DNA of 14,266 nt from a virus (lineage: Duplodnaviria > Heunggongvirae > Uroviricota > Caudoviricetes): the IMG/VR virus record IMGVR_UViG_2703718840_000012; one strand, given 5' to 3'. The notes below the pieces were generated by a model that saw nothing but the letters and a program-made list of their open reading frames with translations, was not told the origin of the DNA and ran no database searches. This document shows positions 1 through 14,266 of this stretch, in pieces. A program made the translations under genes and the position numbers. How positions within the stretch are numbered: the stretch's first letter is position 1; every line of letters starts with the position of its first letter.

Positions 1-93
1 GCGGAGTTATCCCGCGTAGAGATAGTCGAGCTGCTCAGTCAGGAGTCGGAAAAATTTCACAATATCGGATTGTCTCGCGGGGAGGTGCTTTGA
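1..93 (+). CDS. 3' end of an upstream phage early ORF (partial; 30 codons open from window edge to TGA at 91-93)
   Basis: Frame 1 is open from position 1 to a TGA at 91-93 that overlaps the next gene's ATG (93-95) by one base, as is typical of the packed P2 early operon. Not in the ORF track because it has no start codon in the window. Confidence 0.35.
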
Positions 94-392
94 TGTCCTG
101 TTCTCATTCAGTTGTATTACTGAATAACGCCTTAAAAATCGCCGTTATGAAAAATGGCGATTTGTCTCTTATTCAACTTTGTCTTGATAAAGAAAAACGC
201 GACATCACTGAATCTGTTATCGCGATTTATCAGAATGAATTAAACCTCCTGTCTGATGTGGTCAATTTACTTGTTAAACGCGCTGTATTCCACAAGCAAA
301 TTTCCTCAGTGGATGAACTGACAAAATTAACGACAGAACTTGCCAGTTATTGCGCTGATGTATCCAGGAAACTTAACGATAAAAGGAGCTGA
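93..392 (+). CDS. hypothetical phage early-operon protein
   Basis: ORF-track 90..392; the ATG at 93 is preceded by GGAGG (81-85) at 7-nt spacing, and the TTG at 90 is likely an artefact. Stop at 390-392 sits 2 nt before the next RBS/ATG. Position matches the small-ORF block between B and A in P2. Confidence 0.6.
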   Translation: MSCSHSVVLLNNALKIAVMKNGDLSLIQLCLDKEKRDITESVIAIYQNELNLLSDVVNLLVKRAVFHKQISSVDELTKLTTELASYCADVSRKLNDKRS

Positions 393-394
393 TA

Positions 395-619
395 ATGCCG
401 GATAACGTAGATTTTATTCAGGAACAACAGGCTGAATTACTGGAGCGCCAGATTAACGCGGCAAGGGTAAAACATTGCGGTGCTTCTGCGCTGGTTTGCG
501 AAGAGTGTGACGCGCCAATACCTGCTGCCCGTCGTGCGGCTTATCCGTCAGCCACGCGTTGTGTTTCCTGTCAGTCAGTCTTTGAAGCAAAAAACAAACA
601 TTACCGGAGAACGGCATGA
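395..619 (+). CDS. TraR/DksA-family C4-type zinc-finger protein
   Basis: Translation contains two CxxC pairs (CEEC ... CVSC) with the spacing of TraR/DksA C4 zinc fingers. AGGAG at 384-388 is 6 nt upstream of the ATG; the stop overlaps the next ATG (ATGA at 616-619). Confidence 0.8.
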   Translation: MPDNVDFIQEQQAELLERQINAARVKHCGASALVCEECDAPIPAARRAAYPSATRCVSCQSVFEAKNKHYRRTA

Positions 620-891
620 GTATTCGTATTGAAATTGGCGAACGTTATGTCGTTACCAGTGACAGCTTTCAGTTTATTCTCCACGAGAAAAAGAGAGCGG
701 AAAGCGGTAAAAACGCCGGTCAGGAATGGCTGTCGGTGGTTGGTTATTACCCGAAATTAAGCCAGCTCGTTTCCGGCCTGATGCATCACGATATTCTGAC
801 CGGAAGCGCAAAGTCTTTTGCTGATTTAAACGTGCAGGTTGAGCAACTCAGCAAGCGTTGTTCAGAGGCTTTTGGCTCATATGGCCGTTAA
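616..891 (+). CDS. hypothetical phage early-operon protein
   Basis: ATG at 616 with GGAGA at 604-608; the 3' end overlaps the gpA start at 881. Compact, overlapping organisation typical of a phage operon. Confidence 0.6.
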   Translation: MSIRIEIGERYVVTSDSFQFILHEKKRAESGKNAGQEWLSVVGYYPKLSQLVSGLMHHDILTGSAKSFADLNVQVEQLSKRCSEAFGSYGR

Positions 892-3157
892 AGCCTCCGG
901 GCGTTTTGTCCCTCCGTCAGCATTTGCCGCAGGCACCGGTAAGGCGTTTACCGGTGCTTATGCATGGAACGCGCCACGCGAGGCTGTCGGGCGCGAAAGA
1001 CCCCTTACACGTGACGAGATGCGTCAGGTGCAAGGTGTTTTATCCACGATTAACCGCCTGCCTTACTTTTTGCGCTCGCTGTTTACGTCACGCTATGACT
1101 ACATCCGGCGCAATAAAAGCCCGGTGCACGGGTTTTATTTTCTCACATCCACTTTTCAGCGTCGTTTATGGCCGCGCATTGAGCGTGTGAATCAGCGCCA
1201 TGAAATGAACACCGACGCGTCGTTGCTGTTTCTGGCAGAGCGTGACCATTATGCGCGTCTGCCGGGGATGAATGACAAGGAGCTGAAAAAGTTTGCCGCC
1301 CGTATCTCATCGCAGCTTTTCATGATGTATGAGGAACTCTGCGATGCCTGGGTGGATGCGCATGGCGAAAAAGAATCGCTGTTTACGGATGAGGCGCAGG
1401 CTCACCTCTATGGTCATGTTGCTGGTGCTGCACGTGCTTTCAATATTTCCCCGCTCTACTGGAAAAAATACCGTAAAGGGCAGATGACCAAGAGGCAGGC
1501 ATATTCTGCCATTGCCCGTCTGTTTAACGATGAGTGGTGGACCCATCAGCTTAAAGGCCAGCGTATGCGCTGGCATGAGGCGTTACTGATTGCTGTCGGG
1601 GAGGTCAATAAAGACCGTTCTCCTTATGCCAGTAAACATGCCATTCGTGATGTGCGTGCACGCCGCCAGGCAAATCTGGAATTTCTTAAATCGTGTGATC
1701 TCGAAAACAGGGAAACCGGCGAGCGCATCGACCTTATCAGTAAGGTGATGGGCAGTATTTCTAATCCTGAAATTCGCCGGATGGAGCTGATGAACACCAT
1801 TGCCGGTATTGAGCGTTACGCCGCAGCAGAGGGTGATGTGGGGATGTTTATCACGCTGACCGCGCCGTCAAAGTATCACCCGACACGTCAGGTCAGAAAA
1901 GGCGAAAGTAAAACCGTCCAGCTAAATCACGGCTGGAACGATGAGGCATTTAATCCAAAGGATGCGCAGCGTTATCTCTGCCGTATCTGGAGCCTGATGC
2001 GCACGGCATTCAAGGATAATGATTTACAGGTCTACGGTTTGCGTGTCGTCGAGCCACACCACGACGGAACGCCGCACTGGCATATGATGCTTTTTTGTAA
2101 TCCGCGCCAGCGTAACCAGATTATCGAAATCATGCGTCGCTATGCGCTCAAAGAGGATGGCGATGAAAGAGGAGCCGCGCGAAACCGTTTTCAGGCAAAA
2201 CACCTTAACCGGGGCGGTGCTGCGGGGTATATCGCGAAATACATCTCAAAAAACATCGACGGCTATGCACTGGATGGTCAGCTCGATAACGATACCGGCA
2301 GGCCGCTGAAAGACACTGCTGCGGCTGTTACCGCATGGGCGTCAACGTGGCGCATCCCGCAATTTAAAACGGTTGGTCTGCCAACAATGGGGGCTTACCG
2401 TGAACTACGCAAATTGCCGCGCGGCGTCAGCATTGCTGATGAGTTTGACGAGCGCGTCGAGGCTGCACGCGCCGCCGCAGACAGTGGTGATTTTGCGTTG
2501 TATATCAGCGCGCAGGGTGGGGCAAATGTCCCGCGCGATTGTCAGACTGTCAGAGTCGCCCGTAGCCCGTCGGATGACGTTAACGAGTACGAGGAAGAGG
2601 TCGAGAGGGTGGTCGGCATTTACGCGCCGCATCTCGGCGCGCGTCATATTCATATCACCAGAACGACGGACTGGCGCATTGTGCCGAAAGTTCCGGTCGT
2701 TGAGCCTTTGACTTTAAAAAGCGGCATCGCCGCGCCTCGGAGTCCTGTCAATAACTGTGGAAAGCTCACCGGTGGTGATACTTCGTTACCGGCTCCCACA
2801 CCTTCTGAGCACGCCGCAGCAGTGCTTAATCTGGTAGATGACGGTGTTATCGAATGGAATGACCAGGAGGTCGTGAGGGCGCTCAGAGGTGCATTAAAAC
2901 ACGGTCTGAGAAGACCAAACCGTCAGCAAAGAAACGGAAGCCCGTTAAAACCGCATGAAATAGCGCCATCGGCCAGACTGACCCGGTCGGAACGAATGCA
3001 AATTACCCGTATCCGCGTTGACCTTGCTCAGAACGGTATCAGGCCACAGCGATGGGAGCTTGAGGCGCTGGCGCGTGGCGCGACCGTAAATTATGACGGG
3101 GAAAAATTCACGTATCCGGTCGCTGATGAGTGGCCGGGATTCTCAACAAACATATAA
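881..3157 (+). CDS. A: P2-type replication initiation endonuclease gpA (rolling-circle initiator)
   Basis: ORF-track 839..3157 starts at a TTG; the ATG at 881 gives MAVKASGRFVPPSAFAAGTGK..., which I recognise as the P2 gpA N-terminus. Length (~758 aa) fits gpA and it contains the HWHMMLF block. Recognition is from memory, not a search. Confidence 0.9.
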   Translation: MAVKASGRFVPPSAFAAGTGKAFTGAYAWNAPREAVGRERPLTRDEMRQVQGVLSTINRLPYFLRSLFTSRYDYIRRNKSPVHGFYFLTSTFQRRLWPRIERVNQRHEMNTDASLLFLAERDHYARLPGMNDKELKKFAARISSQLFMMYEELCDAWVDAHGEKESLFTDEAQAHLYGHVAGAARAFNISPLYWKKYRKGQMTKRQAYSAIARLFNDEWWTHQLKGQRMRWHEALLIAVGEVNKDRSPYASKHAIRDVRARRQANLEFLKSCDLENRETGERIDLISKVMGSISNPEIRRMELMNTIAGIERYAAAEGDVGMFITLTAPSKYHPTRQVRKGESKTVQLNHGWNDEAFNPKDAQRYLCRIWSLMRTAFKDNDLQVYGLRVVEPHHDGTPHWHMMLFCNPRQRNQIIEIMRRYALKEDGDERGAARNRFQAKHLNRGGAAGYIAKYISKNIDGYALDGQLDNDTGRPLKDTAAAVTAWASTWRIPQFKTVGLPTMGAYRELRKLPRGVSIADEFDERVEAARAAADSGDFALYISAQGGANVPRDCQTVRVARSPSDDVNEYEEEVERVVGIYAPHLGARHIHITRTTDWRIVPKVPVVEPLTLKSGIAAPRSPVNNCGKLTGGDTSLPAPTPSEHAAAVLNLVDDGVIEWNDQEVVRALRGALKHGLRRPNRQQRNGSPLKPHEIAPSARLTRSERMQITRIRVDLAQNGIRPQRWELEALARGATVNYDGEKFTYPVADEWPGFSTNI

Positions 3158-3218
3158 AAATGATTGAAATGGTTGATTTTGCTTCCACTTGATGGTTGGT
3201 ATCAGCAACTGATGGATC

Positions 3219-3479
3219 ATGCGGAACTGCGTGGCGATCTTGCTTTGGAAGCATGTCATTATGACTAATGCATACATTACTAGCTATGCGTCCGGTTCCG
3301 CCATTGTACTCGTGCAAGAGTCTGCGGCTGATGGCTATTGTTTACAAATTATGGTCAAAGAGAATCTGACCCTCTACGAGTTGGTCGGAGGGACTGAGAT
3401 CGTCAGTGATAACTGCAGCCGTATGGGAGAAATCAATAATCCCAACCGTCCATATTTCTACCTTCACGCGTGCCCATAA
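3219..3479 (+). CDS. hypothetical small protein downstream of A (orf91-like position); start may be ATG 3261
   Basis: ORF-track ORF; no strong RBS at either candidate start. Composition is intermediate between the backbone and the AT-rich cargo. Confidence 0.3.
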   Translation: MRNCVAILLWKHVIMTNAYITSYASGSAIVLVQESAADGYCLQIMVKENLTLYELVGGTEIVSDNCSRMGEINNPNRPYFYLHACP

Positions 3480-3644
3480 TCTGTCACCACGTTGACCATA
3501 GAAAACCCCGTCGACGCTGAAACTCGCTTTCAGTGCTGGCGGGGGTGAACAACGAGCTTGCGAGGCGTTAGGGATGTCGAAATTTCATATGACTGTTCGC
3601 TTTAATGCTTAACGAAGTCATGTTGAGTTAATAACATTTTTTCG

Positions 3645-5189
3645 TTAAGCGCTGTGTTCCTTGTCGAATAAGTTCACTTCTTCTGGTGTAATATCATTAT
3701 CCATTTCTTCGAATGCATCTAAATCCACAATTTTTGTTTTTTTCAAAATTGATAGTATTTTCTGTTTGTTTTTACTTTTGGCTGAACCCGGAATCCACTC
3801 TACATCCCACAGGCCATCAATGGTAAATGTTTTTTTTCCCTTGAGTTCATCATTTATGCGTTGACATAGGGCTGTTTTGTAATCGCCTTCCCATTGTGTG
3901 TGTATCTTCCCTTGAACTCGTTGAAACCAAATATCTAACATTTCAGTATTTGGTTGTTTACCTAGTTTACAATGAAGTTGTTGTAACTTGCCAAATTTGA
4001 GTTCATCGTCGTCATAAAGGAAGGTCAAGAGTTTTGCGAAAATAGCCATTCCCACTGGGTAGGTGGTTGGGTTTTTAGCCATGATGCTTGAAATAATTCC
4101 AAGCATTGCATCTAGTTGATGCCCACTATTTGTGATCTTTTTCTTCCTAAATAATTTTCGCAAGAAATCATTTAAATATCTAACTGTAATTTTGGAGTTT
4201 TGATGTTTTAAAGAAAATAAATATATTGCATACAACATTTTCTGTAGGGAGTTGAACGACTTTTCTATAATATATTCTTTTTTTGCTGATTTAAGGGAGT
4301 GAAGAATGATGTCGTCATGTAGTTCTGTTTTTCTTGAGTTTAAATCAAGCCCAAACTCACCTAAGACCTCAACCAAACACTTTGAGATTTTGTCCAAATC
4401 ATCTTTACTGCTTGAAAATATTCGATAATCATCTCTGTAGCGAACTACTTTGTAATCCGTTATTTTTTGCTCTTCAGTTTTTTTTCTTAGCTGTAAATCA
4501 ATTTCGCCTAAAATTAATTCGGCAAATGTATCCATCAACGTACTACCCAATGGTATTCCGTTTGTCTGATTACTCATCATCATCTGGATATGAGTGTCAA
4601 TCAATCGTCCTGGGTTATTGTTATTTTCTTTCTTTTTGGCCTCTTCTTTTGAGATGAATACCCATTCAAAGCTATGAGTGTAAATAGAAGGGTAGAAGTT
4701 TGAAATATCTGTGCTGAACATGAACTCATACTCAAGAGCCAATGAAAGACTTTTTTGTTCAAAATCTTCCCACCAGTTTAAAACAGATGCAGCTACGTTT
4801 GAGGTGTTCTTTTTGCTCACTGGGGTACTTGAGCATAAAAAAAGATCATTAGACTCAAACTCTCTAAATTTATTCTTTATAGCCTTCCAGTTGGAAGGGG
4901 ATGTAATAAGTTTACAAAAATACACGTAGTATAGAGGATTAATTAGTGTTATTCGTCGCCAGCTATATAAGCCATCTTTGCTGACTAAAACCTCGTAATT
5001 TATATTCTTCCCCATCAATGACTTGGAGTCAGGTTGGAAGTTGATTTTACCTTCATCTATCGCGGAGTTGATTTCTTCAAGCAAGGAAGAAAAATCGACA
5101 TAACTGGGTAGCTCCAGAGTAGTGTATGAATCATGCTGCAGAAAATACTTAAGCGCTCTACCAGTAGTTAATTCATAAATCTTTTTCAT
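3645..5189 (-). CDS. reverse transcriptase, Abi/UG-like single-gene type with ~220-aa C-terminal extension
   Basis: Translation shows RT motifs in order: SWRRITLINP (motif 2), FSTDISNFYPSI (motif A, catalytic D), NGIPLGSTLMDTFAELIL (motif B), VVRYRDDYRIF (YxDD motif C), GLDLNSRKT (motif D/E). ATG at 5189 (MKKIYELT...) is preferred; the ORF-track start at 5315 is a TTG and the extension reads as Cys/His-rich junk running into the cos flank. Same position and orientation as old in P2. Confidence 0.8.
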   Translation of the reverse strand: MKKIYELTTGRALKYFLQHDSYTTLELPSYVDFSSLLEEINSAIDEGKINFQPDSKSLMGKNINYEVLVSKDGLYSWRRITLINPLYYVYFCKLITSPSNWKAIKNKFREFESNDLFLCSSTPVSKKNTSNVAASVLNWWEDFEQKSLSLALEYEFMFSTDISNFYPSIYTHSFEWVFISKEEAKKKENNNNPGRLIDTHIQMMMSNQTNGIPLGSTLMDTFAELILGEIDLQLRKKTEEQKITDYKVVRYRDDYRIFSSSKDDLDKISKCLVEVLGEFGLDLNSRKTELHDDIILHSLKSAKKEYIIEKSFNSLQKMLYAIYLFSLKHQNSKITVRYLNDFLRKLFRKKKITNSGHQLDAMLGIISSIMAKNPTTYPVGMAIFAKLLTFLYDDDELKFGKLQQLHCKLGKQPNTEMLDIWFQRVQGKIHTQWEGDYKTALCQRINDELKGKKTFTIDGLWDVEWIPGSAKSKNKQKILSILKKTKIVDLDAFEEMDNDITPEEVNLFDKEHSA

Positions 5190-5395
5190 AATTAGTGATT
5201 TCTTCTTAAGTTGCGCACAAATAACTACCTGTTTTCTATCATGATAACGATGCGAATGCGAGCAATTCAGGAAGTGCATTACTCTGCATCGAAGCGCACG
5301 CAAGTCAGAGAACAATAACTGCCTGGCGACATCAGGACTGGCGCGCTAGTTGAGTGGTCATGCAACTGCATTAAAACCGCCCCATGAAGCGGGCG

Positions 5396-5414
5396 GGCGA
5401 GGCGGGGAAAGCAC
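5396..5414. other. P2-type cos site (19-nt cohesive-end sequence GGCGAGGCGGGGAAAGCAC)
   Basis: Exact 19-nt string ggcgaggcggggaaagcac inside a GC-rich island between the two AT-rich RT genes. It matches the P2/186 cohesive-end sequence as I recall it, and sits where cos is expected, between the old-slot gene and Q. Confidence 0.65.
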
Positions 5415-5452
5415 TGCGCGCTAAACGATGTCGCTGGCTTGCAGTTACCCGG

Positions 5453-5481
5453 TTGAAATTCTTATTTTTTTGTTGCATTAT
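5453..5481 (+). promoter_or_regulatory. candidate sigma70 promoter for the RT2 leader/operon (TTGAAA-17 nt-CATTAT)
   Basis: -35 ttgaaa at 5453-5458, 17-nt spacer, -10 cattat at 5476-5481, immediately right of cos and about 250 nt upstream of the RT2 start. Sequence-only call. Confidence 0.25.
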
Positions 5482-5527
5482 TCTTAGCGCACCAGCGATT
5501 CGCTTGGTATGCGGCAGTCAACAACAT

Positions 5528-5722
5528 TAAATTGTCAGTTTTTGCTTTTACAAAAAAGCGTCCACTATGGACCTATCAGCGAGGCCCCACCGTCGTCAAC
5601 TACGATGGTGCCGTAGCCGACGACATTACGTACGGTCGAAAGATAGCAGAGGCTGTTGCTGACAATTGTTGATGTAAGCATCTCTGCTGTTCCACCCTTG
5701 AGTATGGGAAGACCGTACGTAA
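5528..5722 (+). ncRNA. candidate structured leader / retron-like ncRNA (msr-msd-like) upstream of RT2
   Basis: Nested and crossing inverted repeats: 9-bp aattgtcag (5530-5538) vs ctgacaatt (5659-5667), extendable to ~14 bp with a bulge; a two-tier hairpin at 5591-5622; a perfect 12-bp repeat ttacgtacggtc (5626-5637) vs gaccgtacgtaa (5711-5722) ending 18 nt before the RT2 ATG. Architecture is ncRNA -> RT -> effector as in retrons. Boundaries are approximate. Confidence 0.3.
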
Positions 5723-5739
5723 CTTTGAATTTGAATGGT

Positions 5740-6930
5740 ATGTTTATGGATAAATTTAAACCATACAGCAAATCCAATGCTCCTATCACAACACTTGAAA
5801 AGTTGTCAAAGGCTTTATCGATTTCTGTTGAAGAGCTTAAAGCTATTGCAGAATTACCATTAGATGAGAAATATACTCTAAAAGAAATTCCCAAAATTGA
5901 CGGAAGCAAACGGATTGTCTACTCCCTGCATCCTAAAATGAGATTATTACAGAGTAGAATTAATAAACGTATCTTTAAGGAATTGGTTGTTTTTCCTTCA
6001 TTTTTGTTTGGTTCAGTTCCCAGTAAAAATGATGTTTTAAATTCTAATGTCAAACGTGACTATGTTTCATGTGCAAAGGCTCATTGTGGAGCAAAAACAG
6101 TTCTCAAGGTGGATATAAGTAATTTTTTCGATAATATCCATAGAGATCTGGTTAGGAGCGTGTTTGAGGAGATATTGCATATTAAGGATGAGGCTCTTGA
6201 ATACTTGGTGGAAATATGTACTAAGGATGATTTTGTCGTACAGGGGGCCTTAACATCAAGCTATATAGCAACTTTGTGTTTATTCGCTGTTGAAGGGGAT
6301 GTGGTAAGACGTGCGCAGAGGAAAGGACTTGTTTATACGCGTTTGGTAGATGATATTACCGTGTCATCTAAAATAAGTAATTATGATTTTTCTCAAATGC
6401 AAAGCCATATAGAGAGGATGCTTTCTGAGCATGACTTGCCGATAAATAAGCGCAAAACTAAAATATTTCACTGTTCATCTGAACCTATAAAAGTACATGG
6501 TTTAAGAGTTGACTATGACTCACCTCGACTACCATCCGATGAAGTCAAAAGAATCAGGGCATCTATACATAATTTGAAATTACTGGCGGCAAAAAATAAC
6601 ACAAAAACAAGTGTTGCATACAGAAAAGAATTCAATAGATGTATGGGGAGAGTGAATAAGCTTGGCCGTGTTGCGCATGAAAAATATGAATCATTCAAGA
6701 AACAGTTGCAGGCAATAAAACCGATGCCATCTAAAAGAGATGTTGCTGTGATTGATGCAGCTATAAAAAGTTTAGAGTTGTCGTATTCGAAAGGTAATCA
6801 AAATAAACATTGGTATAAAAGAAAATATGATTTGACGAGATATAAGATGATTATTCTTACTCGCTCTGAATCATTTAAAGAAAAACTGGAGTGTTTTAAA
6901 TCTAGATTGGCATCTTTAAAACCATTATGA
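5740..6930 (+). CDS. retron-type reverse transcriptase (divergent catalytic motifs)
   Basis: Translation shows YTLKEIPKIDGSKRIVYSLHP (motifs 1-2), HCGAKTVLKVDISNFFDNI (motif A), VVQGALTSSYIATL (motif B), YTRLVDDI (motif C, both Asp present), INKRKTKI, then VHGLRVDY...VKRIRASIHNL, resembling the retron RT VTG/thumb region. Start is ambiguous among ATG 5704, 5740 and 5746, none with a strong SD; the ORF-track start 5656 is a TTG. Confidence 0.85.
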   Translation: MFMDKFKPYSKSNAPITTLEKLSKALSISVEELKAIAELPLDEKYTLKEIPKIDGSKRIVYSLHPKMRLLQSRINKRIFKELVVFPSFLFGSVPSKNDVLNSNVKRDYVSCAKAHCGAKTVLKVDISNFFDNIHRDLVRSVFEEILHIKDEALEYLVEICTKDDFVVQGALTSSYIATLCLFAVEGDVVRRAQRKGLVYTRLVDDITVSSKISNYDFSQMQSHIERMLSEHDLPINKRKTKIFHCSSEPIKVHGLRVDYDSPRLPSDEVKRIRASIHNLKLLAAKNNTKTSVAYRKEFNRCMGRVNKLGRVAHEKYESFKKQLQAIKPMPSKRDVAVIDAAIKSLELSYSKGNQNKHWYKRKYDLTRYKMIILTRSESFKEKLECFKSRLASLKPL

Positions 6931-7634
6931 ATGCAAATATTAGACTTCTCAAATATATTGTCGGTGTGTCGTCAGCTCTTTTTTTGATTTTTTCGCTAAT
7001 TTCTCTTTTTGAAACTATTCAGAATGAAAAGCTATATGAGCGTGATATATGCTTCGATAGCCAGTGCTTAAAATTTTTTGCGGAAAAAACATCTGGTATA
7101 GTAATGTATTTTCAGGCGTTTGGATGGCTTATAACAACTTTTGTTACCGTTTTTGGTGTTATGATTGCTTTGATGACATATAACGCTGGAGTTAAAAATA
7201 ATAATAATAGTAATTACACTAGTCATCTGACGATGTTTAGAGAATTTGCAAGTGCTGAGTTAACTAAAAGAAGTAGCATCTATCCAGAGAAAGTTAATTT
7301 TTTTAGATGGTATAGGGTTATGTTCCCTGAAGCGCAAGGCGGTGATATATCTGTTTCGAGAGATTATCTAGAAATAATATCTAGAATCAAATGTGTTATT
7401 GAGGAAGCCAATGCACATATTACAGAGGAAAATAAAGACTATAAATATAAAACTCATCAGAGAAAAATGATGGCTGTTTTGGATGAAATCGGTATATCGA
7501 TTAGTAATGGGCCCAAAAATATTTTTATTGAGGTTGAGAGTCAAATTTTGGATTATATCGATACTATTAATTTGTCATTTTGTCACTCCTCATCAGTGAT
7601 AGAATTAAGTAGAGTAAAAAGGAAGTATATATAG
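6927..7634 (+). CDS. two-transmembrane-helix membrane protein with ~150-aa soluble C-terminal domain; candidate effector of the RT2 module
   Basis: ATG overlaps the RT2 stop (ATGA at 6927-6930), indicating translational coupling. Two hydrophobic stretches (YIVGVSSALFLIFSLISLF and IVMYFQAFGWLITTFVTVFGVMIALMTY) near the N-terminus; same AT-rich composition as RT2. Confidence 0.8.
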   Translation: MNANIRLLKYIVGVSSALFLIFSLISLFETIQNEKLYERDICFDSQCLKFFAEKTSGIVMYFQAFGWLITTFVTVFGVMIALMTYNAGVKNNNNSNYTSHLTMFREFASAELTKRSSIYPEKVNFFRWYRVMFPEAQGGDISVSRDYLEIISRIKCVIEEANAHITEENKDYKYKTHQRKMMAVLDEIGISISNGPKNIFIEVESQILDYIDTINLSFCHSSSVIELSRVKRKYI

Positions 7635-7636
7635 TT

Positions 7637-7672
7637 AAGTTGGCGGGATTGCATTCCGCCAACTTTATATAT
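7637..7672. terminator. GC-rich hairpin with T-rich tail between the cargo operon and the 3' end of Q; candidate bidirectional terminator
   Basis: aagttggcgg (7637-7646) pairs with ccgccaactt (7656-7665) around a 9-nt loop, followed by tttatatattt. Lies 3 nt after the 2TM stop and 5 nt before the Q stop on the other strand. Confidence 0.45.
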
Positions 7673-7676
7673 TTAC

Positions 7677-8696
7677 TTATAAGTTATAATCAAGGAATTT
7701 TATGACTTCCATATCTAACCATTCATTTATTGACTTTATTCTCTCCTGTAATGGAATGAGTTCATTGCGGACAAAGACCTTTGCCACTTTTTCAATATCT
7801 CCTAGTGACCCGACATTCTCCGGCTTACCGCCCATCAACTGAAAGGGGATGCGGTGTGCGTCCAGGAGATCTGCGGCGCTGACTTTTTTGATATTAAAAA
7901 AATCGTCCTTCGTCGCCACTTCACTGAGGGGGATAATTTTAATGCCGTCGGCTTTCCCCTGTGGGGCATAGAGAAACAGGTTTTTAAAGTTGTTGCGGCC
8001 TTTTGACTTAACCATGTTTTCGCGAAGCATTTCGATATCGTTGCGGTCCTGCACGGCATCGGTGACGTACATGATGTATCCGGCATGAGCGCCGTTTTCG
8101 TAATACTTGCGGCGGAACAGCGTGGCCGACTCATTCAGCCAGGCAGAGTTAAGGGCGCTGAGATATTCCGGCAGGCCGTACAGCTCCTGATTAATATCAG
8201 GCTCCAGCAGGTGAAACACGGAGCCGGGCGCGAAGGCTGTCGGCTCGTTGAAGGACGGCACCCACCAGTAAACATCCTCCTCCACGCCACGACGGGTATA
8301 TTTGGCCGGTGAGGTTTCCAGTCTGATGACCTTACCGGTGGTGCTGTAACGCTTTTCCAGAAACGCATTACCGAACACCAGAAAATCCAGCACAAAGCGG
8401 CTGAAATCCTGCTGGGACAGCCACGGGTGCGGGATAAACGTTGAAGCCAGAATATTGCGTTTAACGTAAATCGGTGAGCTGTGATGCACGGCAGCACGCA
8501 GGCTTTTTGCCAGACCGGTAAAGCTGACCGGTGGCTCATACCATCTGCCGTTACTGATGCACTCGACGTAATCCAGAATATCACGGCGGTCGAGTACCGG
8601 CACCGGCTCACCAAAGGTGAATGCCTCCATTTTCGGGGCGCTGGCAGTCATTGTTTTCACCGCTGGCTGCGGTGTTTTCCCTTTTTTCTTACTCAT
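7677..8696 (-). CDS. Q: P2-type capsid portal protein gpQ
   Basis: 339-aa ORF (P2 gpQ is similar in size), GGAG RBS 9 nt upstream, ATG overlapping the stop of the upstream terminase ORF (ATGA at 8693-8696), cos-proximal and on the leftward strand as in P2. Confidence 0.88.
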   Translation of the reverse strand: MSKKKGKTPQPAVKTMTASAPKMEAFTFGEPVPVLDRRDILDYVECISNGRWYEPPVSFTGLAKSLRAAVHHSSPIYVKRNILASTFIPHPWLSQQDFSRFVLDFLVFGNAFLEKRYSTTGKVIRLETSPAKYTRRGVEEDVYWWVPSFNEPTAFAPGSVFHLLEPDINQELYGLPEYLSALNSAWLNESATLFRRKYYENGAHAGYIMYVTDAVQDRNDIEMLRENMVKSKGRNNFKNLFLYAPQGKADGIKIIPLSEVATKDDFFNIKKVSAADLLDAHRIPFQLMGGKPENVGSLGDIEKVAKVFVRNELIPLQERIKSINEWLDMEVIKFLDYNL

Positions 8697-9607
8697 CAGT
8701 AAAACTCCAGAATGGTGGATGTCAGCGGGGTGCTGATACCGGCGGTGAGTGGCTCATTTAACAGGGCGTGCATGGTCGCCCAGGCGAGATCGGCGTGGCT
8801 GGCTTCCTCGCTGCGGCTGGCCTCATAGGTGGCGCTGCGTCCGCTGCTGGTCATGGTCTTGCGGATAGCCATAAACGAGCTGGTGATGTCGGTGGCGCTG
8901 ACGTCATATTCCAGACAGCCACGGCGGATAACGTCTTTTGCCTTGAGCACCATTGCGGTTTTCATTTCCGGCGTGTAGCGGATATCGCGCGCGGCGGGAT
9001 AGAACGAGCGCACGAGCTGGAACACGCCGACACCGAGGCCGGTGGCATCAATCCCGATGTATTCAACGTTATATTTTTCGGTGAGTTTGCGGATGGATTC
9101 CGCCTGGGTGGCAAAGTCCATGCCTTTCCACTGGTGACGCTCAAGTATTCTGAATTTGCCACCGGCCACCACCGGCGGTGCCAGTACCACGCATCCGGCG
9201 CTGTCGCCACGGTGTGACGGGTCGTAACCAATCCATACCGGGCGGGAGCCGAACGGATTTGCGGCAAACGGCGCATAGTCTTCCCATTCTTCCAGCGTGT
9301 CGACCATGCAACGTTGCAGCTCCTCGAACGGGAACACCGACGCCTTGTCGTCAACAAATTCACACATGAACAGGTTTTTAAAATCGTCGGCGCTGTTTTC
9401 ACGTTTGAGCTGCTCAATGTCGAACAGTGTGCAGCCACCTTTCAGGGCGTCCTCAATGGTGACAATCTGCCGCCACTGGCCGTCCGCACAGAGAAGCCCA
9501 CCGGCAAGGGCGTTATGACTGACGTCGATTTCCACGCGTTCGGCGGCGCTGGCGCGTCCCCGGTTGAACAGTTCACCCGACCAGAACGGGTACCCTGGAT
9601 AATCCGG
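8696..9607 (-). pseudogene. P: terminase ATPase/nuclease subunit gpP, C-terminal ~300 aa only (5' half deleted)
   Basis: Reading frame is continuous with the Q overlap and is open upstream of the GTG at 9535 back to a TAA at 9608-9610, with no plausible start or N-terminal ATPase region. About 300 aa are present against the ~590 expected for gpP. Confidence 0.8.
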
Positions 9608-9846
9608 TTAAACGTGGTGAACAGGTTATCGAACAGGTCACGCTGATGAAACCCAATGCCGGGACGCTGCGCGGTGTCAGTCTGGCTGCGGTCGCAAACT
9701 CCGAAGTCGATGCACTGATTAAAGTGCTGCCGCGCATGACGGCACCGATGCTGACCGAGCAGGAGGTCGCCGCGCTGGAACTGCCTGACCTTGTGGCGCT
9801 GGCCGGTAAGGTGGTCGGTTTTTTGTCGCCGAACTCGGTGCAGTGA
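9568..9846 (+). pseudogene. E: tail assembly chaperone gpE, 5'-truncated at the deletion junction (first ATG at 9646)
   Basis: Frame open from 9568. Ends ...GKVVGFLSPNSVQ with the heptamer T TTT TTG (9819-9825) in the correct phase for the -1 shift that makes E+E' in P2-like phages. Abuts the P fragment on the opposite strand. Confidence 0.6.
9819..9825 (+). other. programmed -1 ribosomal frameshift slippery heptamer (T_TTT_TTG) of the E/E' pair
   Basis: X_XXY_YYZ pattern in phase with the E frame (codons GGT TTT TTG); the -1 frame stays open for ~55 codons to a TGA at 9990-9992. Confidence 0.55.
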
Positions 9847-9898
9847 CGTTTCCGAAAAATCTCTCGGTCGATGACCTGATGGCGGATGTGGCAGTGAT

Positions 9899-10675
9899 AT
9901 TTCACTGGCCGCCATCACCGGCATCAATGCCATCATCGCGGCAGCAGGCGCAATGGGGGCAATCTTCACGACGGTTGGCAGTGCTGTTATGACCGCCATC
10001 GGAGCGATTAGCTGGCCGGTTGTGGCCGTGGTGGCCGCCATTGTCGCCGGGGCGTTGCTTATCCGTAAATACTGGGAGCCTGTCAGCGCATTCTTTGGCG
10101 GTGTGGTGGAAGGGCTGAAAGCGGCATTTGCGCCGGTGGGGGAACTGTTCACGCCACTTAAGCCGGTGTTTGACTGGCTGGGCGAAAAGTTACAGGCCGC
10201 GTGGCAGTGGTTTAAAAACCTGATTGCCCCGGTTAAAGCCACCCAGGACACCCTGAACCGTTGCCGTGACACGGGCGTCATGTTCGGGCAGGCACTGGCT
10301 GACGCGTTGATGCTGCCGCTTAATGCGTTCAACAAACTGCGCAGTGGTATTGACTGGGTACTGGAAAAACTCGGTGTTATCAACAAAGAGTCAGACACAC
10401 TTGACCAGACCGCCGCCAGAACTCATGCCGCCACGTATGGCACCGGTGGTTATATTCCGGCGACCAGCTCTTATGCAGGCTATCAGGCTTATCAGCCGGT
10501 TACGGCACCGGCTGGCCGCTCTTATGTGGACCAGAGTAAAAACGAATATCACATCAGTCTGACGGGCGGTACTGCGCCGGGGACTCAGCTCGACCGCCAG
10601 TTACAGGATGCGCTCGAAAAATATGAGCGGGATAAACGTGCGCGCGCCCGTGCCAGCATGATGCATGACGGTTAA
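9899..10675 (+). pseudogene. T: tail tape measure protein gpT, C-terminal ~240-260 aa only
   Basis: Frame open from 9899, first ATG at 9953, stop at 10673-10675 directly before the U RBS. Hydrophobic segment plus a C-terminal ...ERDKRARARASMMHDG tail typical of P2-like tape measures; far shorter than the ~800 aa expected. Confidence 0.75.
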
Positions 10676-12350: not shown

Positions 12351-12379
12351 TTGTTTTATAAGGATAAATTAACTAAAAT
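12351..12379 (+). promoter_or_regulatory. candidate ogr promoter (TTGTTT-17 nt-TAAAAT)
   Basis: -35 ttgttt 12351-12356, 17-nt spacer, -10 taaaat 12374-12379, about 35 nt upstream of the ogr ATG, in an AT-rich gap after D. Confidence 0.3.
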
Positions 12380-12413
12380 GGCACCATCAACAAAATCGGA
12401 AGAGGTGCTCGCG

Positions 12414-12632
12414 ATGTTTCATTGTCCTTTATGCCAGCATGCCGCACATGCGCGTACAAGCCGCTATATCACTGACACGACAAAAGAGCGTTATCACCAG
12501 TGTCAGAACGTGAATTGCAGCGCCACGTTTATCACTTATGAGTCGGTACAGCGATACATCGTGAAGCCGGGAGAAGTCCACGCCGTAAGACCGCACCCGT
12601 TGCCGTCAGGGCAGCAAATTATGTGGATGTAA
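12414..12632 (+). CDS. ogr: Ogr late-gene transcription activator (C4 zinc finger)
   Basis: 72-aa product MFHCPLCQHAAHARTSRYITDTTKERYHQCQNVNCSATF... with CxxC-N22-CxxxxC cysteines, recognised as P2 Ogr (ogrK in K-12). ORF-track start 12351 is a TTG; the ATG at 12414 has a GGAAGAGGTG RBS. Confidence 0.9.
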   Translation: MFHCPLCQHAAHARTSRYITDTTKERYHQCQNVNCSATFITYESVQRYIVKPGEVHAVRPHPLPSGQQIMWM

Positions 12633-12733: not shown

Positions 12734-12760
12734 AAAAAATAAGCCCGTGTAAGGGAGATT
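12734..12760. other. P2 attachment-site core (attR), 27 bp AAAAAATAAGCCCGTGTAAGGGAGATT
   Basis: Exact 27-nt string at 12734-12760, about 100 nt after ogr and 145 nt before host yegQ, matching the P2 att core as I recall it. The phage-host junction is therefore here. Confidence 0.65.
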
Positions 12761-12904
12761 ACACAGGCTAAGGAGGTGGTTCCTGGTACAGCTAGCATTT
12801 TATGGGTTATGTTTTTCAGCGAAACGGATGATAACCTTAATAAATGCAGCTGTATGTGATCGGTTTCTAAGAATTTTCCATCCGGGAAAAATAATCGAAA
12901 TTAA

Positions 12905-14266
12905 TCACTTACCGTGTGGGTTACGCGTGGTTTCCCCGGAGAAATTACGCATCAGCAGAGCGTAATTGAGCTCAAGATCCTGCGGGACCGGGAGCCACAC
13001 AGTATAACCATCGCCTGGTGCGACCGGCATCGCTTCACCTATGGCGTTTTCCATGTGCTCAAGGGTAAAGTTAATGTTGCCTTGCGGCGTCATCAGCTCA
13101 AGGCTGTCGCCAACGGAGAATTTATTTTTCACCGCTACCGCCGCGAGGTCCCCCTTGCGCTCACCGGTAAACTCACCAACAAACTGCTGGCGGTCAGAAA
13201 CTGAATAACCGTATTCGTAGTTCTGATAATCGTCGTGAGTATGACGACGCAGGAAACCTTCGGTATAGCCACGATGCGCCAGACCTTCCAGAGTTTCCAG
13301 CAGGCTGGTATCGAACGGTTTGCCCGCAGCGGCGTCATCGATAGCTTTACGGTAAACCTGTGCGGTGCGTGCGCAATAGTAGAAAGATTTAGTACGGCCT
13401 TCGATTTTCAGCGAATGCACGCCCATTTTGGTCAGGCGTTCTACATGGGCGATGGCGCGCAGATCTTTCGAGTTCATGATGTAAGTGCCGTGCTCATCTT
13501 CAAACGCGGTCATATACTCGCCCGGACGCTGGGCTTCTTCGATCATAAACACTTTGTCGGTTGGCGCGCCGATACCCAGCGTCGGCTCAACATTTTGCAC
13601 CGGAATCGGCTCGTACTTGTGTACGATGTTGCCAACGTCATCTTCTTTCCCTTCCTGGACGTTGTACTCCCAGCGGCAGGCGTTGGTGCAGGTACCCTGG
13701 TTCGGATCGCGCTTGTTGATATAGCCAGAGAGCAGGCAGCGACCGGAGTAGGCCATGCACAGTGCGCCGTGAACGAAGATCTCGATCTCCATATCCGGCA
13801 CCTGATTGCGGATCTCTTCAATCTCTTCCAGCGACAGCTCGCGAGAGAGGATCACGCGGGTCAGGCCCATTTGCTGCCAGAATTTCACCGTCGCCCAGTT
13901 TACGGCGTTAGCCTGCACCGAGAGGTGGATCGGCATTTCAGGGAAGTGCTCACGCACCAGCATAATCAGCCCTGGATCGGACATAATCAGCGCATCCGGC
14001 CCCATTTCCACCACCGGTTTCAGGTCACGGATAAAGGTTTTCAGCTTGGCGTTGTGCGGTGCAATGTTGACCACGACATAAAACTTTTTCCCCAGCGCGT
14101 GGGCTTCATTGATGCCGAGCTGAAGATTTTCGTGGTTGAATTCGTTGTTGCGCACACGCAGGGAGTAACGCGGCTGGCCCGCATAAACAGCATCTGCGCC
14201 ATAAGCGAAAGCGTAACGCATATTTTTCAGCGTTCCCGCCGGGGAAAGGAGTTCCGGTTTAAACAT
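12905..14266 (-). CDS. yegQ: host peptidase U32-family protein YegQ (TrhP, tRNA hydroxylation)
   Basis: 453-aa ORF MFKPELLSPAGTLKNMRYAFAYGADAVYAG... recognised as E. coli YegQ. The ATG is the last triplet of the window (14264-14266 on the minus strand), so the CDS is complete but its promoter is outside. Confidence 0.92.
   Translation of the reverse strand: MFKPELLSPAGTLKNMRYAFAYGADAVYAGQPRYSLRVRNNEFNHENLQLGINEAHALGKKFYVVVNIAPHNAKLKTFIRDLKPVVEMGPDALIMSDPGLIMLVREHFPEMPIHLSVQANAVNWATVKFWQQMGLTRVILSRELSLEEIEEIRNQVPDMEIEIFVHGALCMAYSGRCLLSGYINKRDPNQGTCTNACRWEYNVQEGKEDDVGNIVHKYEPIPVQNVEPTLGIGAPTDKVFMIEEAQRPGEYMTAFEDEHGTYIMNSKDLRAIAHVERLTKMGVHSLKIEGRTKSFYYCARTAQVYRKAIDDAAAGKPFDTSLLETLEGLAHRGYTEGFLRRHTHDDYQNYEYGYSVSDRQQFVGEFTGERKGDLAAVAVKNKFSVGDSLELMTPQGNINFTLEHMENAIGEAMPVAPGDGYTVWLPVPQDLELNYALLMRNFSGETTRNPHGK

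Follow-up and report, generated by a model that had tools for sequence, protein, structure and literature searches.

The 14,266-nt stretch of Caudoviricetes DNA analyzed here (the window; IMG/VR record IMGVR_UViG_2703718840_000012) is collinear with phage pro147 and carries, on its minus strand at 3645–5189, a reverse-transcriptase gene (RT1) encoding 514 amino acids plus a stop codon. RT1 occupies the AT-rich variable slot between gpA and cos, as do the coliphage members of the Abi-P2 family. Downstream lies the convergent gpA gene (839–3157, plus strand) and upstream come cos and then a divergent retron; the preliminary description had likewise reported that RT1 has no co-oriented neighbor. 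The cos flank which it placed upstream is confirmed by the P2 cohesive-end sequence, found as an exact 19-nt match (GGCGAGGCGGGGAAAGCAC) at 5396–5414 on the plus strand, 206 nt upstream of RT1, with no such match expected by chance; the alignment with the right-hand end of phage 186 runs as far as 5394. The cos site is the upstream limit of the locus and no part of the defense gene. Similarity to phage 186 and to Yersinia phages ends at 3571 and starts again at 5352–5355, leaving between these points a low-G+C cassette (approximate extent, 3572–5351; 35% G+C) within a P2/186 backbone. The host prophage itself is defective, i.e., ~15 kb have been lost between the terminase gene P and the tail gene E, with a loss of ~1.7 kb inside the tape-measure gene.

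The RT1 frame closes at 3645 and in its longest form would open at TTG 5315 (556 residues), with ATG 5189 giving the 514-residue product. A frame of this length in DNA of 35% G+C (vs. 54% for gpA) is not there by chance. Among the candidate starts, 5189 is the best supported: the 30–31 additional N-terminal residues of the older ORF544 and ORF570 annotations show no conservation between alleles, are left out of the RefSeq annotation, and are not visible in the Abi-P2 crystal structure (PMC9508834), and most homologues of RT1 are 500–515 residues long. The alternative starts at ATG 5279 and TTG 5315 were dropped because the upstream sequence is not conserved. The evidence thus supports the 514-residue form over the longer annotations, and the ORF544 and ORF570 forms are probably not translated. 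Residue numbering in the structure paper rests on these longer forms.

Two domains make up the protein, namely an RT-like domain of fingers and palm (residues 1–295; 4305–5189, minus strand) and a C-terminal helical domain (residues 296–514; 3648–4304, minus strand). Within the former, Pfam RVT_1 matches residues 142–291, and RT motifs A to D of the preliminary description, YRDD included, are located between D161 and residue 288. The catalytic aspartate of motif A is Asp161 (codon at 4707–4709, inside TDISNFYPSIYTH), motif B reads QTNGIPLGS (residues 208–216), motif D reads LNSRKT (residues 283–288), and between them the catalytic motif C, read directly from the sequence, is YRDD (Y251, R252, D253, and D254; 4428–4439), its tyrosine corresponding to Tyr282 of the P2-EC30 protein. 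In family alignments of 21 and 27 sequences, with identities down to 34%, D161, Q208–P213, Y251-R-D-D254, and K287–T288 are invariant, as are L27, P28, and Y30; residues 136–295 are also the best-conserved part between the EC58-type allele present here and the EC30 allele (86% identity). Since residue 1 of RT1 aligns to residue 32 of the EC30 structure (PDB 7R08; offset 31), Y30 (codon at 5100–5102) is equivalent to Tyr61 of P2-EC30 and is the predicted protein-priming tyrosine. The Y61F variant of EC30 Abi-P2 makes no DNA (PMC9508834), and deletion of the YRDD region costs the EC30 allele its T5 resistance, as relayed by PMC8632793 from Odegrip 2006. A Y(R/V)DD active site in the RT palm/fingers is a hallmark of Abi-P2 (PMC8632793), as is a priming tyrosine in the fingers α2-α3 loop, present in RT1 as Y30; all catalytic and priming residues of RT1 are intact.

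The ~220-residue lysine-rich C-terminal extension noted beforehand measures 219 residues, of which 13.7% are lysine (vs. 8.8% in the N-terminal part). It is all-helical in an AF2 model, and the alignment of RT1 with 7R08 extends through residue 508. Alpha-helical repeats in place of a thumb are a further Abi-P2 hallmark, described in PMC9508834 and PMC9226505, and are found in RT1 by the AF2 model and its superposition on 7R08. In Abi-P2 and AbiK, this domain provides the second lobe of the DNA channel as well as trimer contacts (PMC9508834).

A stand-alone abortive-infection RT of the AbiA/AbiK/Abi-P2 kind in the P2 old slot had been proposed at the outset with its family left open; profile and structure comparisons now make the assignment to Abi-P2 firm, and we regard it as settled. 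The PADLOC AbiP2 profile aligns residues 1–512 of RT1 with profile positions 4–487 of 489 (531.7 bits; E = 4.4e-160). The next PADLOC family, Drt6, scores 159.9 bits (~370 bits lower), with the Drt6 and Drt4 profiles covering only part of RT1, followed by AbiK at 105 bits and by retron and group II intron models at ~33–42 bits. A search of the sequences of solved structures returns 7R08 over residues 1–508 (E = 3.4e-258), and the AF2 model (pLDDT 85.9) superposes on 7R08 with TM scores of 0.92/0.97 and an rmsd of 1.5 Å; ranked after it are DRT6 (TM 0.64), DRT4/UG15 (0.56–0.59), AbiK (0.57), and then AbiA. RT1 clusters neither with retron RTs nor with group II intron RTs, and it does not belong to a defined multi-gene system. 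Its best retron model reaches 33.5 bits against a cutoff of 235 (TM ≤0.33), and the structured region at 5470–5739, considered as a retron RNA for RT1, is encoded on the opposite strand and goes with the retron RT (RT2). As a group II intron RT/maturase, RT1 reaches 42.1 bits against a cutoff of 300 for TIGR04416, through the palm only (TM ≤0.38), and no group II intron RNA was matched in Rfam. Membership in Drt4 is likewise not reached (121.5 bits with the NCBIfam Drt4 model vs. a cutoff of 450).

Abi-P2 of P2-EC30 (orf570; PDB 7R08) is 75.1% identical to RT1 from end to end and shares with it the two-lobed fold, the priming tyrosine, the YRDD site, the genomic slot, and the single-gene organization. 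Substitutions cluster most heavily over residues 1–60 (62% identity) and in the distal part of the helical domain (57% over residues 441–480). In EC30-type prophages, gpA comes directly after the RT without the intervening ORF85 segment found here, and the 3′ hairpin is strong. The published results on T5 exclusion, polymerization, and structure are for the EC30 allele and not the EC58-type; in the accessible literature we found no experiment on the latter, in which 25% of residues differ from EC30. DRT6 (UG12) and DRT4 (UG15) are the next-best HMM matches to RT1 (E = 2.5e-47 and 5.5e-43, respectively). These single-gene class 1 UG/Abi defense RTs, like Abi-P2, combine an RT with alpha-repeats and carry out tyrosine-primed, template-independent ssDNA synthesis, and DRT4 is active against T5, as is EC30 Abi-P2; however, their identity to RT1 in structural alignments is just 17–19%, and they are hexamers, whereas Abi-P2 has been seen as a trimer. 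AbiK from Lactococcus lactis is a distant match (HMM E = 1e-30; TM 0.57) that resembles Abi-P2 in its covalent tyrosine-linked DNA, its independence of a template, and a helical second lobe replacing the thumb. Its priming tyrosine lies in the same loop at a nonequivalent position, and AbiK differs further in being a plasmid-borne hexamer of a Gram-positive host, with phage escape via sak genes.

The gene itself is already known. RT1 DNA is 99.7% identical to phage pro147 and 99.5% identical to AM157368 over 2280 bases that include ORF85 and both flanks. The latter record, titled P2-EC58 ORF544, "putative reverse transcriptase" in GenBank, is the same gene in the same gpA–cos position, with its frame annotated from 30 codons farther upstream. 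The RT1 protein differs from P2-EC58 ORF544 by four substitutions (99.2% identity), and the copies of P2-EC58 and of pro147, a complete phage, are 99.2–99.8% identical to it. Complete E. coli genomes hold 65 copies, each at least 99% identical, and ~1% of these genomes carry the EC58-type allele. The paper on the Abi-P2 structure (PMC9508834) mentions the P2-EC58 gene by name. Gene, P2-like prophage slot, family, structure, and in vitro chemistry have thus all been published, Abi-P2 having been described in 2006 (Odegrip, as cited in later papers) and its structure solved in 2022; as a discovery, RT1 carries little weight.

The leader between cos and the ATG (5190–5395, minus strand) contains a block, CTCGCA-N16-CATGATA(A/G)A, conserved across four aligned alleles (71–78% identity) and with its TATCATGATAGAAAACA part at 5246–5230. 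This block is a candidate promoter; a simple sigma-70 scan of the RT1 strand from cos to the ATG returned no site. After the stop codon lies the weak hairpin of the preliminary description (3613–3644, minus strand; −5.0 kcal/mol, z = −1.3). Its counterpart in the alleles of EC30, Salmonella, Klebsiella, and Entomohabitans is a GCCATGTT-loop-AACATGGC hairpin of −14.7 to −20.7 kcal/mol (z ~−7), and that of EC30 looks like an ordinary terminator because a T-run comes next. The hairpin at 3613–3644 is probably the gene's own terminator, decayed here. Another hairpin, resembling a terminator and with UUUU after it (3506–3544, minus strand; −18.2 kcal/mol), belongs to the phage backbone, as the stretch that holds it (3487–3571) is common to phage 186 and to Yersinia P2-like phages without an RT; transcription of RT1 in the EC58-type allele probably stops here. 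Phage 186 has its annotated terminator t95b immediately downstream of the matching stretch.

The lack of an obvious partner gene or ncRNA, remarked on at the outset, holds across 76 loci, Rfam, and RNA folding. Among 76 distant loci, no neighbor family occurs in more than 16, so that no partner is conserved; the neighbors that do recur are parts of other defense systems (type I R-M and type I-C cas), and the close alleles are found in P2/186-like prophages that differ in the genes downstream. Mestre et al. (PMC9226505) place AbiP2 among stand-alone multi-domain proteins, and a 2021 review (PMC8632793) left unclear whether Abi-P2 defense needs other elements of its locus. An Rfam search of the whole window at the gathering threshold returned CyaR only, far from the RT1 locus, and a search of 3100–5800 at E up to 10 gave noise only. 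Neither the 5′ leader (5190–5395; z = +0.35) nor the 3′ flank (3480–3644; z = −0.83) folds better than its shuffles, and a consensus fold of the leader over four alleles yields trivial hairpins (−16.7 kcal/mol) with a covariation term of −0.62, i.e., essentially none. ORF85 (3219/3261–3479) accompanies RT1 in 64/64 E. coli genomes, is confined to the EC58-type in phage records, and matched no family beyond a PHROG of unknown function. The segment is not a family feature, since it is missing beside the EC30, Salmonella, Klebsiella, and Entomohabitans alleles; ORF85 was ruled out as a family-level partner on the same grounds, while a role specific to the EC58-type allele is still conceivable.

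Very probably, then, RT1 is an EC58-type Abi-P2, a single-gene abortive-infection/superinfection-exclusion system acting from the gpA–cos slot in the following manner. The protein would form a trimer, possibly a hexamer, with the palm/fingers and the C-terminal helical lobe of each subunit enclosing a channel. The hydroxyl of Tyr30 would prime DNA synthesis, and the YRDD site would extend random-sequence ssDNA without a template or nucleic-acid primer, with the product remaining covalently bound to the enzyme. Once a sensitive phage infects (for the EC30 allele, T5), this product would turn harmful, aborting the infection before progeny arise. By analogy with DRT4/DRT6, structurally the nearest of the characterized systems, for which a trigger model with T5 ORF55 and SbcB exists (PMC12783706), a phage ssDNA-binding protein may be the switch; by keeping host exonuclease I (SbcB) away from the product, it would let toxic ssDNA build up. 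For the EC30 allele, the published basis comprises a trimer, DNA products of ~40 nt and >100 nt, and a purified protein that is nucleic-acid-free (A260/A280 ~0.6) and makes DNA from dNTPs alone (PMC9508834). T5 plating efficiency is lowered more than 10^7-fold by EC30 in a YRDD-dependent manner according to PMC8632793, which cites Odegrip 2006; PMC9508834 also cites that work for T5 exclusion by EC30 orf570. We infer by analogy with the EC30 allele that the EC58-type would behave in the same way, with the identity of the trigger drawn from DRT4/DRT6.

Across cos from RT1 lies retron Ec48, and the RT1–cos–retron junction is present in 42 complete E. coli genomes, where ~2 would be expected from the separate frequencies of RT1 (64) and the retron (57) among ~2190 genomes with this cos region. 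One could suppose that the EC58-type allele has another phage range or trigger and that its pairing with Ec48 (42/64 genomes) is a selected, two-layer guard over host DNA-end metabolism, a proposal to which we give little credence. If true, Ec48 would sense inhibition of RecBCD and the free ssDNA of Abi-P2 would become toxic once protected from exonuclease I by a phage protein, such that the two systems together would cover both routes of exonuclease evasion. Because the copies are all at least 99% identical, the association is what would be expected from physical linkage in one phage lineage, which is the plainer account.

That RT1 is instead an RNA-templated RT, copying a cis-encoded RNA (the leader, the ORF85 segment, or the 3′ hairpin) in the manner of DRT2/DRT9/DRT10, is very unlikely. 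Several UG/Abi systems once deemed single-gene need an ncRNA (PMC9226505, PMC12783706), and conventional reverse-transcriptase activity of the EC30 protein is attributed to Odegrip et al. in PMC8632793; the ORF85 segment (3200–3480) and RT1 also have equal genome counts (64 E. coli genomes) with no RefSeq gene in the segment, and other alleles display a sequence-conserved hairpin after the stop codon. That hairpin, however, is decayed in the EC58-type allele itself and terminator-like in EC30, and the RT1 leader has neither excess nor conserved structure and no Rfam match. Moreover, the EC30 protein carries no bound nucleic acid and requires only dNTPs for DNA synthesis, and the fold of RT1 is nearest to those of the template-independent DRT6, DRT4, and AbiK rather than DRT2/DRT9.

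We put at a similarly low level the probability that RT1 has no current function in this strain and is merely carried along, silent or decaying, in a dead prophage. The prophage deletions (P to E and within the tape-measure gene) point that way, as do the decayed 3′ hairpin, the lack of a consensus sigma-70 promoter upstream of RT1, and a copy in TW10573 annotated as shorter, consistent with a frameshift; given the defective prophage and the decay of its own hairpin, expression of RT1 is not guaranteed. Against this stand 514 codons that have stayed intact in AT-rich DNA prone to stop codons, the full complement of catalytic and priming residues, and the near-identity of RT1 to the gene of P2-EC58 and to that of complete phage pro147, as well as among all 65 of the E. 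coli copies.

Least credible of all is a DRT3-like unit, i.e., two RTs and an ncRNA acting jointly, in which RT1 would use the ncRNA or msDNA of Ec48: although the two cassettes are divergent with ~550 bp from start to start, 5470–5739 is a strongly structured RNA region (z = −4.3), and the junction is overrepresented, RT1 without the retron and the retron without RT1 both occur, cos and the portal gene coming straight after RT1 in TW10573 and MS 198-1 and a DUF7380 gene replacing RT1 in the old slot beside the retron of TUM1226. Outside the junction, ~22 genomes have RT1 and ~15 have the retron. Ec48 was rejected as a partner of RT1 because the modules assort independently. No retron adjoins the alleles of EC30, Salmonella, or Klebsiella, Ec48 is protective as a clone of its RT, ncRNA, and 2TM effector (bioRxiv 10.1101/2020.06.21.156273), EC30 Abi-P2 makes DNA with no nucleic acid present, and the virion genome has one of the two cassettes at each end.

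Ultimately, a single-gene Abi-P2 of the EC58-type remains our reading of RT1, and part of its practical value lies in comparison: the EC58-type and EC30 alleles would form a natural pair for specificity mapping and for probing whether the T5 ORF55/SbcB model of DRT4 and DRT6 applies.

The open reading frame at 3645-5189 on the minus strand (RT1) lies exactly where the preliminary description had placed it, in the variable "old" slot between gpA and cos of P2-like prophages. A single open frame spans 3645-5315 on this strand and, from the ATG at 5189, encodes a 514-residue protein (N-terminus MKKIYELTTG) in which reverse transcriptase (RT) motifs A (TDISNFYPSIYTH, containing D161), B (QTNGIPLGS, residues 208-216), C (YRDD, residues 251-254) and D (LNSRKT, residues 283-288) can be read. 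The lysine-rich C-terminal extension noted together with these motifs is likewise present: residues 296-514, all-helical in the predicted structure, contain 13.7% lysine versus 8.8% in the N-terminal part. G+C content is 35% in RT1 versus 54% in the adjoining gpA gene (839-3157, plus strand), which is convergent with RT1. As had been reported, no neighbour is co-oriented with RT1 and its upstream flank is that of cos; the 19-nt P2 cohesive-end sequence is matched exactly at 5396-5414, 206 nt upstream of the RT1 ATG, and a divergent retron lies beyond it.

An Abi-P2-like affiliation had been proposed with the family left unverified, and both profile and structure comparisons now support it firmly. 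The PADLOC AbiP2 profile matches RT1 along its entire length (E 4.4e-160, 531.7 bits), with Drt6 as runner-up (159.9 bits), followed by UG14 and Drt4; AbiK reaches 105 bits, and AbiA (43) and the generic RT models (about 42) lie lower still. Pfam detects only RVT_1 (residues 142-291), and in NCBIfam, which contains no Abi-P2 model, the Drt4, Drt3b, group II intron and retron models all score far under cut-off. The top solved-structure match is 7R08, the Abi-P2 of prophage P2-EC30 (E 3.4e-258, residues 1-508), to which RT1 is 75.1% identical globally. An AlphaFold2 model of RT1 built on 27 family members (pLDDT 85.9, pTM 0.88) superposes on 7R08 with TM 0.92/0.97 and an rmsd of 1.5 Å; the next matches by TM are DRT6 (0.64), DRT4/UG15 (0.56-0.59), AbiK (0.57) and AbiA (0.47), with retron, group II intron, DGR, DRT2 and DRT9 RTs at 0.38 or below. 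RT1 carries all the defining features of Abi-P2 that sequence can reveal. It is, moreover, a gene already on record and no new family member, since the DNA at 3102-5381 is 99.5% identical to GenBank AM157368, the P2-EC58 entry whose orf544 was named as an Abi-P2 gene in the structure paper (PMC9508834). DNA 1-9592 as a whole is 99% identical to phage pro147.

In the EC30 protein, DNA synthesis is lost in Y61F and kept in Y46F, and Tyr282 is the counterpart of a DNA-contacting AbiK residue (PMC9508834). These three tyrosines are all present in RT1, as Y30, Y15 and Y251, respectively. Alignments of 21 and 27 family members, reaching down to 34% identity, show L27, P28, Y30, D161, Q208-P213 and Y251-R-D-D-Y255 to be invariant. 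Older annotations start further upstream (ORF544 in P2-EC58; ORF570, of 546 residues, in P2-EC30), and the numbering of Tyr61 and Tyr282 in the structure paper counts 31 residues from an upstream ATG. The 514-residue product is nonetheless the best-supported form of RT1, because the 30-31 extra N-terminal residues (5279-5190, minus strand) are unrelated between the EC58 and EC30 alleles, are disordered and invisible in the EC30 crystal (PMC9508834) and are omitted by RefSeq, and because most of the 120 homologues listed are 500-515 residues long. The shorter start accounts for the offset of 31 between RT1 and the structure paper; native Abi-P2 probably starts at the MKK methionine, which would make Tyr30 the priming residue.

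The absence of a partner gene, as first described, was borne out for each candidate examined. ORF85 (3219-3479, plus strand) is a putative gene of the P2-EC58 entry, convergent with RT1, with a conserved start at 3261 that gives 72 residues (PHROG 13272, unknown function); RefSeq shows no gene there in most genomes. Its segment and RT1 are each present in 64 complete E. coli genomes, but as all copies of the segment are ≥95% identical (≥99% in 54 of 65 records), the shared count reflects one haplotype block and is not independent evidence. ORF85 was rejected as an Abi-P2 family partner, being absent beside the EC30, Salmonella and Klebsiella alleles: gpA directly follows the RT in the EC30-type allele, and the genes after the RT in Salmonella (allele 82% identical) and Klebsiella (86%) are an unrelated one of 243-256 residues and one that is DinI-like, an order as in phage 186.

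The retron across cos is a complete Ec48-type system (5415-7634, plus strand), comprising its RT (RT2, 5740-6930, plus strand; PADLOC type IV retron RT profile, E 2e-176) and a two-transmembrane effector (6927-7634, plus strand; E 2e-67). Much stronger folding than in shuffled sequence (z -4.3) marks 5470-5739, upstream of RT2, as the expected site of the msr-msd RNA, which no Rfam model detects. Among 5,426 complete E. coli genomes, RT1 occurs in 64, the Ec48 retron in 57 and the RT1-cos-retron junction in 42, versus about 2 expected under independent assortment. The retron was still rejected as a partner: in strains TW10573 and MS 198-1 the order is RT1, cos, portal gene, and the retron is missing, and in TUM1226 the retron is present but a DUF7380 gene occupies the old slot. 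RT1 and the retron are distinct modules flanking cos, linked by proximity; in virion DNA, their cassettes lie at opposite genome ends.

Distant relatives were scanned with one genome per species (at least 588 species with a relative), and in the 76 analysable distant loci any one neighbouring protein family recurs 16 times at most. The recurring families are type I restriction-modification subunits (HsdS 16, HsdR 12, HsdM 10) and type I-C cas genes (4), i.e., other defence systems with the RT nested inside rather than partners. Such distant RTs (35-38% identical) often sit within other defence operons: between cas4 and cas1 of type I-C CRISPR-Cas in Pasteurellaceae and Neisseria (L044, L054, L061 and L074; Neisseria, Mannheimia, Haemophilus), and between hsdS and hsdR in many phyla, often with 4-nt gene overlaps; further loci listed for such nesting include L016, L017, L055, L060, L069, L077 and L084. 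The CRISPR link had been described before (as clade 15 of Toro et al. 2019, according to PMC8632793). The absence of an RT1 partner agrees with the listing of AbiP2 by Mestre et al. among stand-alone multi-domain proteins (PMC9226505).

Nor did an associated noncoding RNA emerge, again in keeping with the first account. Rfam gives no match at the RT1 locus, even at E up to 10; the leader (5190-5395) and 3′ flank (3480-3644) show no folding beyond that of shuffled sequence; and a cos-to-ATG alignment of four alleles (71-78% nucleotide identity) yields a trivial consensus fold with almost no covariation. Conserved leader blocks comprise the cos region, repeats with ATGCA that lie up to about 125 nt from cos and, in view of P2 cos work, are plausibly part of the packaging signal, and CTCGCA..N16..CATGATA(A/G)A, a candidate promoter about 45-60 nt before the ATG. 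Immediately past the stop codon, a hairpin (GCCATGTT-loop-AACATGGC) is strong in the EC30, Salmonella, Klebsiella and Entomohabitans alleles (L090, 5714-5760; L091, 5549-5590; L092, 5546-5587; L006, 6546-6588; -14.7 to -20.7 kcal/mol, z about -7). Its stem is conserved in sequence rather than covarying, a T-run follows it in the EC30 allele, and it looks like the Abi-P2 gene's own terminator. The weak hairpin originally noted downstream of RT1 is this element (3613-3644, minus strand), decayed to -5 kcal/mol in the EC58-type allele. There, a second hairpin in backbone sequence about 100 nt further on (3506-3544, minus strand; -18.2 kcal/mol, then UUUU) probably acts as terminator. As an observation, the preliminary description was right in all details, coordinates included.

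That P2-like phages carry AbiP2 in their cos-proximal hotspot has been documented before. The low-G+C insert extends from about 3572 to 5351, as backbone similarity to phage 186 and Yersinia P2-like phages without the RT ends at 3571 and restarts at 5352-5355; the right end of the phage 186 genome aligns up to 5394, directly beside the cohesive-end sequence. The prophage itself is defective, with deletions in the region 9591-9917, onward to 12721. Collinearity with pro147 runs to 9592, within terminase gene P, which lacks its ATPase half; there the gene is joined to tail gene E, a deletion of about 15 kb that took out the capsid, lysis, baseplate, fibre, sheath and tube genes. A second deletion, near 9905-9917 inside the tape-measure gene, removed about 1.7 kb. 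Both the RT1 and retron cassettes are kept. The last prophage genes are gpU, gpD and ogr (12351-12632, plus strand), and the CyaR/RyeE sRNA gene (12737-12822, minus strand; 100.7 bits, E 1e-19) sits just beyond, between ogr and a peptidase U32 gene (12905-14266, minus strand; yegQ/trhP in matching genomes), marking the right prophage-chromosome junction. Separately, more than a dozen "complete" E. coli RefSeq chromosomes (e.g., NZ_CP091839, NZ_CP072802 and NZ_CP110511) start exactly at the P2 gpA start codon; window 3100 corresponds to record position 2220, and position 1 is therefore window 881. The phage replication gene was apparently mistaken for an origin marker by an assembly-rotation tool, a database curiosity rather than biology.

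EC30 Abi-P2 forms stable trimers, which stack in pairs in the crystal; each subunit has two lobes and a channel, and the protein purifies free of nucleic acid (PMC9508834). With dNTPs alone it makes DNA of about 40 nt and >100 nt, which Y61F abolishes (PMC9508834). We infer that the EC58-type allele would work as the EC30 protein does. The characterised systems structurally closest to Abi-P2 are DRT4 and DRT6, whose constitutively produced ssDNA is cleared by exonuclease I (SbcB) until the T5 DNA-binding protein ORF55 protects its 3′ end and ssDNA reaches toxic levels (PMC12783706). Given that T5 is sensitive in each case, we adopt the same logic, with moderate confidence, as the most likely trigger for Abi-P2: its ssDNA would be made constitutively and degraded by exonuclease I (SbcB), and a phage DNA-binding protein (ORF55 in T5) would shield the 3′ end, leading to toxic ssDNA.

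The Abi-P2 finding is itself already known. The EC58-type allele (64 of 5,426 complete E. coli genomes) is 25% diverged from that of EC30, especially in the first 60 residues and at 441-480, and apparently has no experimental test in the literature. Beyond pointing to this apparent gap, our analysis adds support for the shorter start codon of Abi-P2 and the limits of the RT1 cassette.
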